Shown in pieces: positions 29,676-34,338 of a DNA stretch of 60,217 nt. The notes beneath the pieces are model-generated. The model did not search any database. It saw only the letters and a list, made by a program, of their open reading frames with translations, and had not been told where the DNA came from. The first letter of the stretch is position 1. Every line of letters starts with the position of its first letter. Origin of the DNA: Kiritimatiellia bacterium (GTDB lineage Bacteria > Verrucomicrobiota > Kiritimatiellia > RFP12 > UBA1067); NCBI GenBank assembly GCA_045641465.1, contig JAZUGW010000226.1:1-60217 (forward strand), given 5' to 3'. The translations under genes were made by a program, and so were the position numbers.

Positions 29676-29734
29676 TTTGCGTTCCAGCCTGAAATTTGGT
29701 ACAATTATCCGCGTCAGGAAAGGAGTGTTGGGCT

Positions 29735-31180
29735 GTGTTTGTTGGCCGAAAAGAATATCTGGAGCTGCTGAATGGTTCGTGGACAAATCGTGGTGGCGTG
29801 CTGGTGACCTGTCGCGGGCGGCGGCGTATTGGGAAAAGCACGTTGATCGAGGAGTTCGCGACACGATTTGCCGATCATTTCTATTCAATAGATGGGTTGT
29901 CGCCACGCAAAGGAATGACCGATGAGAAGCAGCGTCTGCATTTCTGTGAAAAGATCGCCGAGTATGTCGGTGGCGAGGTTAAGCCGGCGGCGACGTGGTC
30001 GCTGGCGTTTGCACAGCTCGACGCATTGATCCCCGCGACGGGCCGTACGGTCGTATTGTTGGACGAAGTGTCGTGGATGGGAGGATATGAAAGCGATTTT
30101 GCAGGATATTTGAAAGAGGCGTGGGATCGCAAGTTGAAGAAACACGCGAACTTCATGTTGGTCGTTTGCGGAAGCGTGTCGGCTTGGATCGCGGAAAACA
30201 TCTTGGATTCGACGGGGTTTGTGGGGCGTACCACGTTGGATCTTGAAGTCGGGGAATTGTCACTTGCAGAGAGCCTTGAGATGCTGGGTGAGCGTGCACG
30301 GCGGTTGTCGGTGACGGAAATCCTGGATTTACTGTCTTTGACAGGCGGTGTTCCCCGCTATTTGGAAGCGATTCGTCCCGAACTGTCTATTGACGAAAAT
30401 GTCCGACAGTTGTGTTTCCTTCCTCATGGGCTGCTCTTTCGTGAATTCGACGAGACATTCAACAGCGTGTTTGGCCAGCGTGTTTCAAGCCGGGAGAAGA
30501 TCTTGCGAAAACTTGTCAATGGGGCCAAGTCGGTGTCCGAGCTTGCGAGTGAGGCGGATGTCTCGCCGAGCGGAGGCCAGACCAAAGTACTGGACGATCT
30601 GGTACATGCGGGCTTCGTTGCACGTGAGAAGGGGATAAATCCCCAAACAGGAAAACTGCTTCGTCAAGAACGGTTTCGCGTGAAGGACAACTATGTCCGT
30701 TTCTATTTGAATTTTGTCGAGCCGAGAAAGTCGGCCATCGAGGCAGGTTTGTTTAAGTTCTCGTCAATGGAACAGTTTCCTGGCTGGGAGACCGTTCTGG
30801 GATTGCAGTTTGAAAATCTCGTTTTGAATCATGTGCAGGATTTCCTGCCCTTGTTGGGGTTGGAAAATGTGTTGGTGCTTTCGGCGGCCCCCTTTACGAA
30901 ACGGTCGTCCAAAACGGGGCCCGGTTTTCAGATTGATCTGCTCATTCAGACTCAACGATCCATGCTGGTGGTTGAAATCAAACGCAGGAAGGAGATTTCG
31001 CATGGGATCATCGACGAGGTCGAGCGGAAAGTCGCCGGACTCAGAAAGTTGACCAAGGCCTCGATTCGTACGGCGCTGGTCTATGACGGAAAACTGGCGA
31101 AGTCCGTACCGGCTGAAGGGTATTTCGACTTCATCGTTCCAGCGGGATCTGTTTTTGAGACACCGACAAGTCGGCTGTAA
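29735..31180 (+). CDS. AAA ATPase (ATPase_2-like) with wHTH and C-terminal PD-(D/E)xK (DUF234-like) domain
   Basis: GTG start after AGGAG; FVGR, GRRRIGKS Walker A, VLLDE Walker B, TGGVPRYL, GLQFE and QIDLL...VEIK. Confidence 0.85.
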   Translation: MFVGRKEYLELLNGSWTNRGGVLVTCRGRRRIGKSTLIEEFATRFADHFYSIDGLSPRKGMTDEKQRLHFCEKIAEYVGGEVKPAATWSLAFAQLDALIPATGRTVVLLDEVSWMGGYESDFAGYLKEAWDRKLKKHANFMLVVCGSVSAWIAENILDSTGFVGRTTLDLEVGELSLAESLEMLGERARRLSVTEILDLLSLTGGVPRYLEAIRPELSIDENVRQLCFLPHGLLFREFDETFNSVFGQRVSSREKILRKLVNGAKSVSELASEADVSPSGGQTKVLDDLVHAGFVAREKGINPQTGKLLRQERFRVKDNYVRFYLNFVEPRKSAIEAGLFKFSSMEQFPGWETVLGLQFENLVLNHVQDFLPLLGLENVLVLSAAPFTKRSSKTGPGFQIDLLIQTQRSMLVVEIKRRKEISHGIIDEVERKVAGLRKLTKASIRTALVYDGKLAKSVPAEGYFDFIVPAGSVFETPTSRL

Positions 31181-31358
31181 AACACGGTTCTTCGTGTGGG
31201 TCTGTCGCGTGGCGGGTTCGTTCCATGATGTACGCAGATGCCTTGAATGACGACCCACACTTATGCCTAAAGCCTCTTTAAAAAGATAGAAACTATCCCT
31301 TTGGCAGTGTTGGGGTTGGGTGTGTGGATGTCAGAAAATGACGGGTGGTTCTACATTG

Positions 31359-31385
31359 CGGCGCGCTCGGAGAGCGCTCCCTACC
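31359..31385. repeat. Single REP-like palindrome
   Basis: ggcgcgctcggagagcgctccctacc: hairpin followed by CCTAC (GTAG-type REP foot on the opposite strand). Confidence 0.5.
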
Positions 31386-31428
31386 ATTTTTGGGGCGTTA
31401 GTTGCGAATTTCGGCTATTTCAAGATGT

Positions 31429-31444
31429 TGGCACGCTTTGTGCT
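31429..31444 (+). promoter_or_regulatory. Sigma54 (-24/-12) promoter
   Basis: TGGCACG-CTTT-GTGCT against consensus TGGCACG-N4-TTGCW; GG and GC correctly spaced; upstream of rtcA, a gene known to be sigma54-dependent in enterobacteria. Confidence 0.75.
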
Positions 31445-31451
31445 AATGGTG

Positions 31452-31530
31452 AGTGTCGTCGATGGAAGCTCGGGGAGCAGCCGATTCCAACCCGGCCACT
31501 GCGGGTTCGACTCCCGCCTTCGACGACATT
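31452..31530 (+). ncRNA. tRNA-like RNA (Trp CCA anticodon-like), non-canonical, without a CCA end
   Basis: Acceptor 31458-31464/31518-31524 extended by 31452-31457/31525-31530; D stem GCTC/GAGC; anticodon arm GCCG-A-TTCCAAC-C-CGGC; T arm GCGGG-TTCGACT-CCCGC. Confidence 0.75.
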
Positions 31531-31554
31531 GATTTGAAAAAAGGAATGTTAGAC

Positions 31555-32574
31555 ATGGCCGATTACATTGAAATTGACGGATCGATGGGCGAGGGCGGAG
31601 GACAAGTCCTCCGTACATCGTTGTCGCTGAGTGCGATCACGGGTACGGAGATCGCGCTCAAGAAGATTCGTGCCGGACGTTCGAAGCCGGGATTGAAGCG
31701 ACAGCATTTGACGTGTGTCAAGGCGGTGGCGGAAATCTGCGGTGCGCAGGTTTCGGACGTGACGGTCGGTTCGATGGAGCTCTCGTTCAAGCCGGGGCCG
31801 ATCAAGGGCGGCGACTATCGGTTCGATGTCGGTACGGCCGGAAGCGTGACGCTCGTCGCCCAGACGGTCATTCCCGTCTTGCTGAAGGCGGACAAGCCCT
31901 CGACGGTGACGATCACGGGCGGAACGCATGTGCCGTTCGCACCGATCTGGGAGTTCTTGGTCGGGACGTATCTGCCGGAACTCCGCCGTATGGGCGCACA
32001 GGTGGAGGCCGAGCTTGAATGCTGCGGATTCTATCCGGCGGCCGGCGGGGTGGTGAAGCTGAAGGTCTGGCCGTACGACAAGACGAAGAAAATCGACTCC
32101 TTCAAATTGACGGAACTCGGTGCGTATCGTGGCGGCAAGGTCGTGGGTGTCGTTTCGGCGATTCCCACGGGGATCGCCGAGGCGGAAGTCGGCATCGTGC
32201 AACGACAGTTCGCGGAATTGGGGTTGACGTCCGAGATCCGCACAGTCGAAGCGTTCGGTCCGGGCAACTACTGCTATGTGCAGCTCGACTATGAGCGAGG
32301 CTCGGTCGTGCTGTCAGCGGTTGGAACCTACAACAAGTCGCGCAAGCAGGTCGCCCACGAGGTGGTGACGGCGGTACGCGACTTCCTCAAGGCCGGTAAG
32401 GCGTGTGAAAAGCATCTCGCCGACCAACTGCTTGTGCCGCTCAATATTCTGCTCGGTTATGACGCATGTGACGATGAGTACTGGGAGCGCTGGAATCTGG
32501 ACGTCCAGCAGGAAACAATGCATTATCTGACCAATGTTGACGTCATCAGGAAGTTCAGACTTTGGGAATTCTAA
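31555..32574 (+). CDS. rtcA: RNA 3'-terminal phosphate cyclase
   Basis: IEIDGSMGEGGGQVLRTSLSLS, IRAGRSKPGLKRQHL, GTAGSVTL, GGTHV, GFYPAAGG, HLADQL and HYLTN (adenylated His). Confidence 0.93.
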   Translation: MADYIEIDGSMGEGGGQVLRTSLSLSAITGTEIALKKIRAGRSKPGLKRQHLTCVKAVAEICGAQVSDVTVGSMELSFKPGPIKGGDYRFDVGTAGSVTLVAQTVIPVLLKADKPSTVTITGGTHVPFAPIWEFLVGTYLPELRRMGAQVEAELECCGFYPAAGGVVKLKVWPYDKTKKIDSFKLTELGAYRGGKVVGVVSAIPTGIAEAEVGIVQRQFAELGLTSEIRTVEAFGPGNYCYVQLDYERGSVVLSAVGTYNKSRKQVAHEVVTAVRDFLKAGKACEKHLADQLLVPLNILLGYDACDDEYWERWNLDVQQETMHYLTNVDVIRKFRLWEF

Positions 32575-32592
32575 TCTGAAGAGGATGTTTTT

Positions 32593-33285
32593 ATGAAATG
32601 GGAAAAGAGAGATTGTCCAATCAAGCTTGAGCTTGATCCTTACGGTTTTGGGTGGGAAGACGTAACGCTTGAGATCGACGGAAAGCATCACTGGTGGTCC
32701 GTATCGGGATGTCTTGGCGATGGTTTTGGCGCTTTGGTCGAGAGTCTCTATGCGCTCTATTCGCATCAAACGTATGATGAAGCCGAACAAAAATGGTTGA
32801 CCGAAGAGGATGTGTATGAGGCGGATTTTGTTGATGGCGAGTATGTGAATTATCGCCGATTGCCGGATGAAGCAAGCTCTGGTATACACTTGCCGAAGGC
32901 GGCGAGTTTCTATTGGGATCTTGAGGGATGTGGTGTCACTTGGACGTTGACAAGGGAATCTGGACCGGCGAAAGATTTCAAACTGACGATTGAACTGCAG
33001 GAAGGGACGGACGAAAAGCATACAGATTCGCGTTATGAGGTTCAGTATTCGGATTTGTGCTATGCGGTTGGGAAAGCCTTGACGGAGGCGATTAAAAAAC
33101 ATGGTTTTGCAGGGTTCCATACGGCGGTTTGGGAAAGCGATGTGAATGTACGGCACTTGTGTTTTCTAAAAGCCTGTGGTATGGGATGCCCCGATGCGCT
33201 CAAGCCGGTTGAGTTTTGCGAAAAAGGTGAAGGGGCGGTTTCACCTTTTGAAGAGGAGATGAAACTGTTGCTCTTTGATTTGTAG
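32593..33285 (+). CDS. Hypothetical acidic protein, probably co-transcribed with rtcA
   Basis: 230-aa ORF with GAGGA RBS, 18 bp after the rtcA stop; no recognised motif. Confidence 0.7.
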   Translation: MKWEKRDCPIKLELDPYGFGWEDVTLEIDGKHHWWSVSGCLGDGFGALVESLYALYSHQTYDEAEQKWLTEEDVYEADFVDGEYVNYRRLPDEASSGIHLPKAASFYWDLEGCGVTWTLTRESGPAKDFKLTIELQEGTDEKHTDSRYEVQYSDLCYAVGKALTEAIKKHGFAGFHTAVWESDVNVRHLCFLKACGMGCPDALKPVEFCEKGEGAVSPFEEEMKLLLFDL

Positions 33286-33406: not shown

Positions 33407-33885
33407 TTACAGTGTTTCGATGGACTTTGGATCAGTGAGGAATTCAAGGAGTCCGATGTGCCGATGCCGTCGTTGTCGATGTGCTTGATGGCCATAGGGG
33501 AACCGTCGATCACCACCTTGCGGAAGTTGTCGCCCGTGTGTTTTAGCGAAAAAGTTTCTTGGGCCATTTTTCCGCGTCGGGAATCATCCAGGCAGATTGG
33601 ATGTAGATGCGTTCATAGCCGCGATTGACCACGAAATCGATTTCGCTCGTCTTGCGTACGATTTTCCCATCCCTGCGGCAAGACGTGCTCACTTCGCCTA
33701 CGTCAACGGTGTAGCCGGAACGCACGAGTTCATTATAGAGTGCATTTTCGACGAGATGCGGCATTTCCAGCTGCCTGTTCCCGATGTGGATATTACGAAT
33801 GCCAAGGTCGGTGGCATAACATTTCATCGGCGATTCGAAGTATCGCTTGCCCTTGATGTCGTATTTCCGAGCTTTCGCAATCAGA
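33407..33885 (-). pseudogene. Fragment of an AAA ATPase / DUF4143 family gene with two frameshifts
   Basis: YDIKGKRYF..KCYATDLGIRN, VENALYNEL, EIDFVVN, YIQSA in one frame; DNFRKVVI in a second; HIGLLEFLTDPKSIETL* in a third; N-terminus missing. Confidence 0.8.
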
Positions 33886-34338
33886 TTTGCATGATGACAT
33901 TTCGATTTTGTTTGTTGTATATGTAAACATAAATTGAAAACGATTACATGGCTTCCCGTGCGGGTGTTCGTCCATGTCTTCTGCGTTTCGCCTGCCGCCT
34001 CCGGCAGGTGAACACGGAGCGCGCGGAGGCACGAAGGCGACTTCGAGGCCGTTTCGCACGTTCCAGTCACCCCCGTGTACCAGATCTTCGGATGGAACGA
34101 TTCCGTCATGGATTACATGAAGTTCGTGCTGGCGAAGCGAAAAGTCGCGTGCAGCTAACGCCGCACAGGGGGCTCCCTTCGGACCTGTCACTGGCAGTCT
34201 GTCCCCCCCCTGGGCAATAGGGGTGAAATGATTGACTTCAATTGGTGGATTTGCTAGACTGTCTCCAGTCTGTCGGGAGGTCCCTGTAAGGTCGGGGCAT
34301 TCCTGATTGTGGTTTAAAATCGAAAGGAAGGTTTTGAG

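Follow-up and report, generated by a model that had tools for sequence, protein, structure and literature searches.

We analysed a 60,217-nucleotide (nt) stretch of DNA from a Kiritimatiellia bacterium (contig JAZUGW010000226.1), referred to here as the window. It carries a short unit on the forward strand: a sigma54 promoter, a 73-nt RNA shaped like tRNA(Trp), the RNA repair gene rtcA and an open reading frame, ORF2. We call the RNA the mimic. An earlier note on this DNA had read it as a tRNA look-alike that serves no role in translation and leads an rtcA operon. The unit consists of the following features, with lengths in base pairs (bp), amino acids (aa) or nt.

31285–31297 (+): palindrome GATAGAAACTATC, candidate site for the activator RtcR, 144 bp 5' of the TGGCAC of the promoter
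31429–31444 (+): sigma54 −24/−12 promoter TGGCACGCTTTGTGCT, the one pattern match in the window; rpoN is present in the genome
31455–31527 (+): 73-nt tRNA(Trp)-like mimic RNA, starting at the predicted 5' end of the transcript (from ARAGORN, Rfam, the family model R1 and covariation)
31455–31464 (+): 5' strand of a closed 10-bp acceptor helix (3-bp extension plus 7-bp acceptor), paired with 31518–31527; U31463 is mismatched
31468–31478 (+): mini D arm GCUC-GGG-GAGC with a 3-nt loop (from sequence and fold)
31480–31496 (+): anticodon arm GCCGA-UUCCAAC-CCGGC, with CCA at 31487–31489
31501–31517 (+): canonical T arm GCGGG-UUCGACU-CCCGC (from the Rfam alignment and comparison with tRNA-Trp)
31518–31527 (+): 3' strand of that acceptor helix; G31525 occupies the discriminator position yet is base-paired, and no CCA is present
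31541–31546 (+): rtcA ribosome-binding site AAGGAA, 8 nt before the ATG at 31555
31555–32574 (+): rtcA, RNA 3'-terminal phosphate cyclase; Pfam RTC (PF01137), 8.6e-68, residues 11–335 of 339
32593–33285 (+): ORF2, a 230-aa acidic protein with an isoelectric point (pI) of 4.62 and no Pfam, NCBIfam or PADLOC match

A tRNA-shaped RNA behind a sigma54 promoter

The earlier note had described a near-consensus −24/−12 element that would place the transcription start at about 31455. The element is present, and the pattern used to find it (TGGCACGNNNNKTGCW) matches once in the 60-kb window, compared with 0.03 matches expected from shuffles. With the GC of its −12 box ending at 31443, the promoter predicts a start near 31455, and the mimic begins 11 nt 3' of this GC. 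No sigma70-like site was found on the forward strand. The same spacing, 11–12 nt from promoter to RNA, recurs in each mimic locus read in other genomes, and a near-identical sigma54 box precedes rtcA in three related loci (L025, L026 and L045).

Two tRNA finders recognised the mimic. ARAGORN called a tRNA-Trp(CCA) at 31457–31527, and the Rfam tRNA model (RF00005) matched 31458–31525 at 31.8 bits, just over its gathering score of 29; this alignment shows a four-column deletion in the D loop. The acceptor is formed by 31458–31464 and 31518–31524 and contains a U·U mismatch at 31463/31519. In place of the N-CCA of a tRNA it is followed by GAC, which pairs with the 5' end of the RNA (31455–31457 with 31525–31527); the helix formed by the two ends is GUCGUCGAUG. 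The anticodon loop has seven nucleotides, UUCCAAC, with U33 and a purine at position 37. The normal tRNA core is missing: position 8 is G rather than U, and the D loop has 3 nt rather than 7–11. The perfect T arm, the 7-nt loop with CCA, the 3-nt D loop, the U-U mismatch and the missing CCA tail had all been read from the sequence before, and all were borne out. The six extra pairs that had been drawn beyond the acceptor stood in part. They can be drawn on the DNA (31452–31457 with 31525–31530), but only the inner three lie within the predicted transcript and are conserved; the outer three lie outside it and, by eye, are not conserved in relatives. The folding energy of the window copy is not significant (z = −1.25; 22 of 200 shuffles fold as well), so the structural support comes from covariation across the family and not from the energy of a single copy.

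The genome also allows the mimic to be compared with true tRNAs. As the earlier note had expected, it scores low: although above threshold, it is the weakest of the 46 Rfam tRNA matches in the genome, the next lowest reaching 46.9 bits. CCA is encoded in 45 of the 46 tRNAs called by ARAGORN, the mimic being the sole exception. A second tRNA-Trp(CCA), with a normal D loop and a G-CCA end, lies on another contig (C315:13595–13668), and only in its anticodon arm and T loop does the mimic resemble it. With a canonical tRNA-Trp(CCA) it shares the CCA anticodon, U33, A37, the UUCGA T loop, a 7-bp acceptor and a 5-bp T stem. It differs in that CCA, a free discriminator and U8 are all missing, the D loop has only 3 nt, and the acceptor is mismatched and lengthened by 3 bp; its predicted sigma54 start, which replaces maturation by RNase P, and the mRNA joined to its 3' end set it apart as well. 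Because a 10-bp helix ties up both ends, leaving neither a free discriminator nor a CCA, and the loop of the D arm is cut down to 3–4 nt, the mimic is probably not used in translation, in line with the earlier view of a non-translating look-alike. Transfer-messenger RNA (tmRNA) and viral tRNA-like structures resemble it in joining tRNA mimicry to a message. Unlike the mimic, however, tmRNA and structures of the turnip yellow mosaic virus (TYMV) type have a chargeable free 3' end, and ARAGORN reported no tmRNA in the window.

These features bear on annotation. An in-frame GTG at 31453 opens a 373-aa frame (31453–32574) that runs through the mimic. We rejected it as the rtcA start, since orthologues begin at the ATG at 31555. 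Automatic annotation could nevertheless over-extend rtcA to this GTG and hide the mimic, or list the mimic as an extra tRNA-Trp gene.

A family of mimics heading Rtc operons

Fetching relatives of RtcA gave 28 loci, 23 of which (L005–L027, mostly labelled as ruminant-gut Kiritimatiellia) encode an orthologue that is 58–91% identical. Upstream regions were compared in the 20 of these loci with at least 160 nt of upstream sequence. A tRNA-like RNA lies directly 5' of rtcA in one of them, L026, where RtcA is 91% identical and ARAGORN calls the mimic tRNA-Gln(UUG). The idea of an RNA leader specific to rtcA therefore did not survive. A locus with a second sigma54 box and a Trp-type mimic 2 kb upstream (L010) was also found. 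A metagenome scan whose pattern demanded the promoter, the T loop and six positions at the 5' end returned 18 loci, 13 with real mimics; the other five (L038, L041, L043, L049 and L054) were dropped as chance matches in coding sequence. The family as a whole comprises 16 loci with 13 distinct sequences, from rumen and gut Kiritimatiellia. With the covariance model R1, two more copies came to light: L007 has a divergent one (29.9 bits), and the one in L008 is cut at its 5' end. In the genome of the window, R1 finds one member, the window copy itself (75.2 bits), and its next match is the real tRNA-Trp (52.4 bits). Rfam recognises the mimics as 'tRNA' only. Viral contigs gave no mimic match, and a phage origin of the mimic was rejected on that ground.

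Members of the family lie 27–55 nt from the first gene (27 nt in the window), and this gene varies. In seven loci, as well as in L007 and L008, it encodes p155, a coiled-coil protein of 154 aa, which is truncated in L048 and L010. An AAA ATPase comes first in L047, L052 and L053, a p312-like gene in L044, and rtcA in the window and L026; the first gene is unclear in L051. The full operon, seen in L008 and L042, runs mimic, p155, an RNA element and a tRNA, AAA, p312 and rtcA. We found no Pfam, NCBIfam or PDB sequence match for p155, p312 or ORF2, only weak PADLOC coiled-coil matches. Judged from these gene orders, the mimic is a module that heads various genes of the Rtc regulon rather than an element specific to rtcA.

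Covariation supports the fold in all four helices. In the alignment fitted to the model, pairing holds in 91% of cells, and 12 of the 24 pairs change on both sides; none of 500 shuffles reached the observed values, and controls with the structure slid along the alignment were at most 51% paired. A plain MAFFT alignment gave 87% paired cells and 10 of 24 pairs changing on both sides, again with none of 500 shuffles reaching the observed values and slid controls at most 57% paired. These zero counts hold for four of five measures in either alignment, the fifth ('further standard pair types') being reached by 24 of 500 shuffles in the model-fitted alignment and 55 of 500 in the MAFFT alignment, and the shuffle tests are inflated by the relatedness of the members. 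Among the 13 members, the first extension pair is GC in 11 and GU in two, the second UA in seven, UG in four and CG in two, and the third CG in all. These pairs covary, which indicates that the closed acceptor end is under selection. Relatives have D loops of 3–4 nt on a covarying stem, and 11 of the 13 members have two mismatched pyrimidines at pair 6:67.

The anticodon arms fall into types. The commonest, GCGGU-CUCCAAA-ACCGC, is identical at all 17 positions to the arm of the tRNA-Trp in the genome of the window, and L042 keeps the Trp-type loop on a covarying stem. A second type (L026, L045, L046 and L008) has a different D arm and loops of UUUUGGG or UUUCGGR. Between the window and L026, identity is about 90% across the promoter, T arm, linker and rtcA, whereas the D and anticodon arms of the two loci are unrelated. 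This difference looks like an anticodon cassette swapped between conserved flanks.

The genes expected of an Rtc regulon lie elsewhere in the genome. We found rpoN on contig C158, rtcR on C330 (561 aa, with RtcR/CARF and Sigma54_activat domains) and one copy of rtcB on C371. No match to TROVE/Ro60 was found in this genome, which is 92% complete, and none of its RtcB or RtcR matches is on the contig of the window, consistent with the earlier observation that rtcB, rtcR and Ro60/Rsr are missing around rtcA. The rtcB promoter has the same type of sigma54 box and also a palindrome, GATAGAGACTATA. Both palindromes are of the form GATAG-N3-CTAT(C/A) and both stand exactly 144 bp 5' of TGGCAC; strict palindromes of the GATAG-N3-CTAT kind number nine in the 4.97-Mb genome. 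We propose the palindrome as a candidate activator site shared by the rtcA and rtcB promoters, to which RtcR may bind. A loose sigma54 expression matched 25 times genome-wide, including just 5' of rtcB and 5' of an operon divergent from an RtcR-like gene. In relatives, rtcR is encoded divergently and directly upstream of promoter and mimic in L010, L042 and L007. It is also divergent from sigma54 promoters that have no mimic (L009, L011, L012, L020, L021 and L022). Together, rpoN and rtcR in the genome, the box type and palindrome shared with rtcB, and the divergent rtcR genes of relatives give good support to the sigma54/RtcR control of the operon that had been suggested, and the promoter is very probably activated by RtcR.

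Two operons elsewhere in the genome belong beside these findings. The rtcB operon (G000:C371:10114–15100, L057) consists of the sigma54 box, rtcB, two genes for RlaP nucleotidyltransferases (355 and 262 aa) and a gene for a SWIM protein of 571 aa; a relative of this SWIM protein (27% identical) follows the mimic in L010. On C265 (33700–36540, L055), an RtcR-like activator of 669 aa is encoded divergently from a sigma54 box. This box leads a gene for a protein of 235 aa that weakly matches Sigma70_r4, and one for a ResIII/DEAD helicase.

Possible roles of the mimic

We are confident, on the strength of fold, family and promoter, that the window encodes a conserved, structured tRNA-mimic RNA under control of the sigma54/RtcR type. 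What such an RNA would do can be approached through what is reported for Salmonella. PMC7790460 places the cut in tRNA-Trp(CCA) between A36 and A37, describes anticodon-loop cleavage of other tRNAs as well, and shows that the CARF domain of RtcR binds 5' halves of tRNA that carry a 2',3'-cyclic phosphate at their end. It also reports that RtcA matters for induction and suggests that YrlA might competitively inhibit an anticodon nuclease. In PMC10159003, nicked tRNA, modelled by a permuted tRNA whose acceptor end is closed, outperforms a 5' half as a ligand of RtcR. A tRNA body with a closed end, an anticodon arm like that of real tRNA-Trp and a place next to rtcA would fit a role as a pro-ligand or sensor, as a decoy, or as both.

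The following mechanism is consistent with these points. When RtcR fires, the sigma54 transcript would begin with the 73-nt mimic and continue into rtcA and ORF2; no terminator was found between mimic and rtcA. Nucleases that cut tRNA anticodon loops would cut the mimic as well, and the long closed acceptor helix would hold the two halves of the nicked RNA together. RtcA would maintain a 2',3'-cyclic phosphate at the cut. The nicked mimic could then serve as an RtcR ligand that prolongs induction for as long as the nuclease is active, or compete with tRNA as a decoy, or both, until RtcB reseals it. This sensor or decoy mechanism is plausible, though we lean somewhat towards doubting it. The full statement, in which a family of mimics heads Rtc operons and acts as a surrogate tRNA, comes close to an even balance of belief and doubt without quite reaching it. 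A more specific form, which we offer only tentatively and think rather unlikely, is a 'canary' tRNA: a body encoded by the regulon, made to be nicked and to be read by RtcR, so that the repair response would gauge nuclease activity directly. Its anticodon cassettes (Trp, UCG and UUG) would be exchanged between strains and would track which tRNAs are targeted by competing toxins or by phage-triggered nucleases.

A number of observations weigh against the reading as a surrogate tRNA. A sigma54 box stands directly before rtcA without any mimic in seven of the 20 loci compared (L006, L010, L011, L012, L021, L023 and L025), and the p155 operons of L020 and L022 likewise have the promoter and no mimic; the mimic is thus an optional element of these operons. 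It is also rare. Under strict filters, and with few candidates scored per genome, it was present in two of 71 sampled genomes of the family, and in 401 genomes of the class the strict pattern found a real copy only in the genome of the window, three other matches looking like chance. Positions fixed by the search pattern are constant partly by construction in the 13 metagenome loci. The anticodon arm is itself variable: the window arm has drifted, differing from the tRNA-Trp arm at six of 17 positions and containing an A·C mismatch, second-type arms have at least five mismatches to any tRNA arm of the genome of the window, and the divergent copy in L007 seems, by eye, to have no 7-nt anticodon loop. 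The rtcR gene of this genome, finally, is unlinked to the window.

The mimic might instead act purely in cis, as a leader whose tRNA fold protects or processes the mRNA, either through a buried 5' end that shields it from decay dependent on that end or through a site for RNase P or an endonuclease that governs how stable the repair mRNAs are or how well they are translated. Its constant place at the very 5' end of a co-transcribed message, with no terminator before the first gene and the 5' end buried in a conserved helix, is what such a leader would show. A simple hairpin would suffice for this purpose, however, and a cis role gives no account of the 17-nt identity with a tRNA-Trp arm, the retained T loop or the cassette swap; the module moreover heads five different first genes. 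One version, in which the loop (CUCC or UUCC) sequesters a ribosome-binding site (GGAG or GGAA) as could be drawn for the window and L037, was rejected, since L047, L052 and L053 have no such site. We regard a purely cis-acting leader as unlikely. An inducible spare tRNA that takes the place of damaged tRNA-Trp would require a cut by RNase P at 31458, a 3' cut after G31525, addition of CCA and charging by tryptophanyl-tRNA synthetase. The 7-bp acceptor, 5-bp T stem, discriminator G, CCA anticodon, U33 and purine 37 suit this idea, as do two PolyA_pol-family enzymes in the genome that possibly add CCA, the scores of 46–55 bits that some members reach as Rfam tRNA, and a Mycobacterium smegmatis YrlA that, in the account given in PMC4201824, is cut by RNase P and given CCA. 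Selection nevertheless keeps positions −1 to −3 paired with 73–75, and in a genome where the mimic is the one tRNA call of 46 without an encoded CCA, no match reaches the family cut-off for RNase Z. The short D loops, the missing U8, the pyrimidine mismatch at 6:67 and the members that read UCG or UUG on arms unlike any host tRNA also speak against it, and we consider a spare tRNA quite improbable.

The closest known relative in kind is YrlA, and an RNA of this type acting with Ro60 (Rsr) would be a natural candidate: in PMC4201824 and PMC7790460, YrlA is a tRNA-like RNA of the RtcR-controlled rsr-yrlBA-rtcBA operon of Salmonella. Like the mimic, it is a noncoding tRNA mimic in a sigma54-dependent repair operon; it also shares the T arm and has a closed stem akin to the acceptor. 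As described in PMC4201824, however, YrlA ends in a Ro60-binding stem at the place of the anticodon arm, has no anticodon arm and needs Rsr. The mimic has the opposite topology: it ends at the acceptor, keeps tRNA topology with a true anticodon arm and a mini D arm, and lies at the 5' end of its transcript. By eye it does not contain the Ro-binding motif GNCGAAN0-1G, in the form quoted from PMC4201824. A Y RNA usually has its Ro60 partner encoded next to it; neither the genome of the window nor G455, the genome of L010, which does have RtcR, yields a TROVE/Ro60 match, and the Rfam Y RNA models gave no match at E up to 10, where the only Rfam matches were tRNA and one chance miRNA. A Y RNA is accordingly very hard to credit. 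We give equally little credence to a functionless decayed tRNA gene or integration scar. The surroundings do vary between strains, with DNA contigs from another run diverging near 31385–31390, ATPase genes of a defence-island type flank the site, and the window anticodon arm has drifted. A scar would not be expected to show compensatory changes in four helices and a fixed sigma54 spacing, and the mimic has little likeness to the host tRNA-Trp beyond the anticodon arm and T loop.

A surrogate tRNA made by the repair regulon, the reading we prefer, has a parallel in the RtcR ligands of Chen and Wolin (2023), which are nicked or circularly permuted tRNAs. These share a closed acceptor end with the mimic and are open in the anticodon loop, as the mimic would be once cut; this form is reported to be the best RtcR ligand. 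Those ligands are host tRNAs or an engineered construct; the mimic is encoded by the regulon itself and known from sequence alone. Literature searches returned papers on YrlA, tmRNA and RtcR and, within the texts covered, no description of the mimic family. The family thus appears to be undescribed, while a tRNA mimic in an Rtc operon as such is already known from YrlA. The mimic bears on how RtcR senses RNA damage and on the role of tRNA-like RNAs in Rtc operons. A second, independently built tRNA mimic on the same regulator, here without Ro60 but with a true tRNA-Trp anticodon arm, suggests that a surrogate tRNA may be a recurrent feature of this repair system. At 73 nt, the mimic is a compact object for the ideas of a nicked-tRNA ligand and of a decoy.

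Neighbouring genes and other RNA elements

Downstream of the mimic, the earlier note had placed the rtcA ribosome-binding site shortly after the RNA and an acidic protein after rtcA, and both are there. ORF2 has 46 metagenomic homologues, none with a recognised domain. It was not found in 60 relatives or at any rtcA locus of relatives, and we rejected it as a conserved partner of rtcA; it is strain-specific cargo. Its first five residues, MKWEK (32593–32607), also begin RtcB in this genome and in L010, a locus with rtcB immediately after rtcA. The MKWEK start of ORF2 may be the trace of an rtcB start that was replaced.

The genes on either side of the mimic-rtcA unit are of the defence-island type. 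Upstream (29696–31180, forward strand) is an ATPase_2/AAA_14 protein whose tail is NERD-like and which matches the PADLOC candidate PDC-S27 (1.9e-74), and downstream (33543–34109, reverse strand) is a DUF4143 fragment. DNA contigs of other samples diverge from the window near 31385–31390, and a contig from an RNA run diverges at 32555. The RNA-run contigs, from three runs, cover parts of rtcA, and one contig of X18, from a single study, begins at 31524; contigs prove neither transcription nor the position of RNA ends, and these were not used as evidence.

Other elements accompany the p155 genes of relatives. A candidate conserved structured RNA of about 220 nt lies 3' of p155 at these positions:

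L037: 1890–2130
L020: 2706–2925
L008: 546–800
L042: 2353–2610
L007: 1960–2215
L022: 2747–2985
L045: 1215–1493 (reverse strand)

RNAalifold predicts 52 pairs, 22 of them with compensatory changes, and a long closing helix; the motifs UAACGAUGUUGAGACC and GGUUAAGGGCUUA are strongly conserved, and a terminator-like hairpin follows. With nhmmer the element was found after p155 in 11 loci and as a remnant in L010. It had no nhmmer match in the genome of the window and no Rfam match. In L010 (915–1060), only 13 codons of p155 are left after the mimic (MKKRVSIARALNP, ending at a stop), together with a weak trace of the RNA element; the usual first gene of the module has decayed there.

After the 220-nt element, L042 (2594–2672) and L008 (789–863) each carry a further gene for a tRNA or tRNA-like RNA, this one ending in G-CCA. 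The copy in L008 is called as tRNA-Asn(GUU) with 54.9 bits. The copy in L042 scores 45.7 bits, is not called by ARAGORN, and combines a normal D arm with the T arm of the mimic and an odd anticodon region. In L052 (1760–3101, reverse strand), a run of weak matches to CRISPR-DR9-like repeats, scoring 22–26 bits against a gathering score of 45, lies just upstream of the unit of sigma54 promoter, mimic and AAA ATPase.

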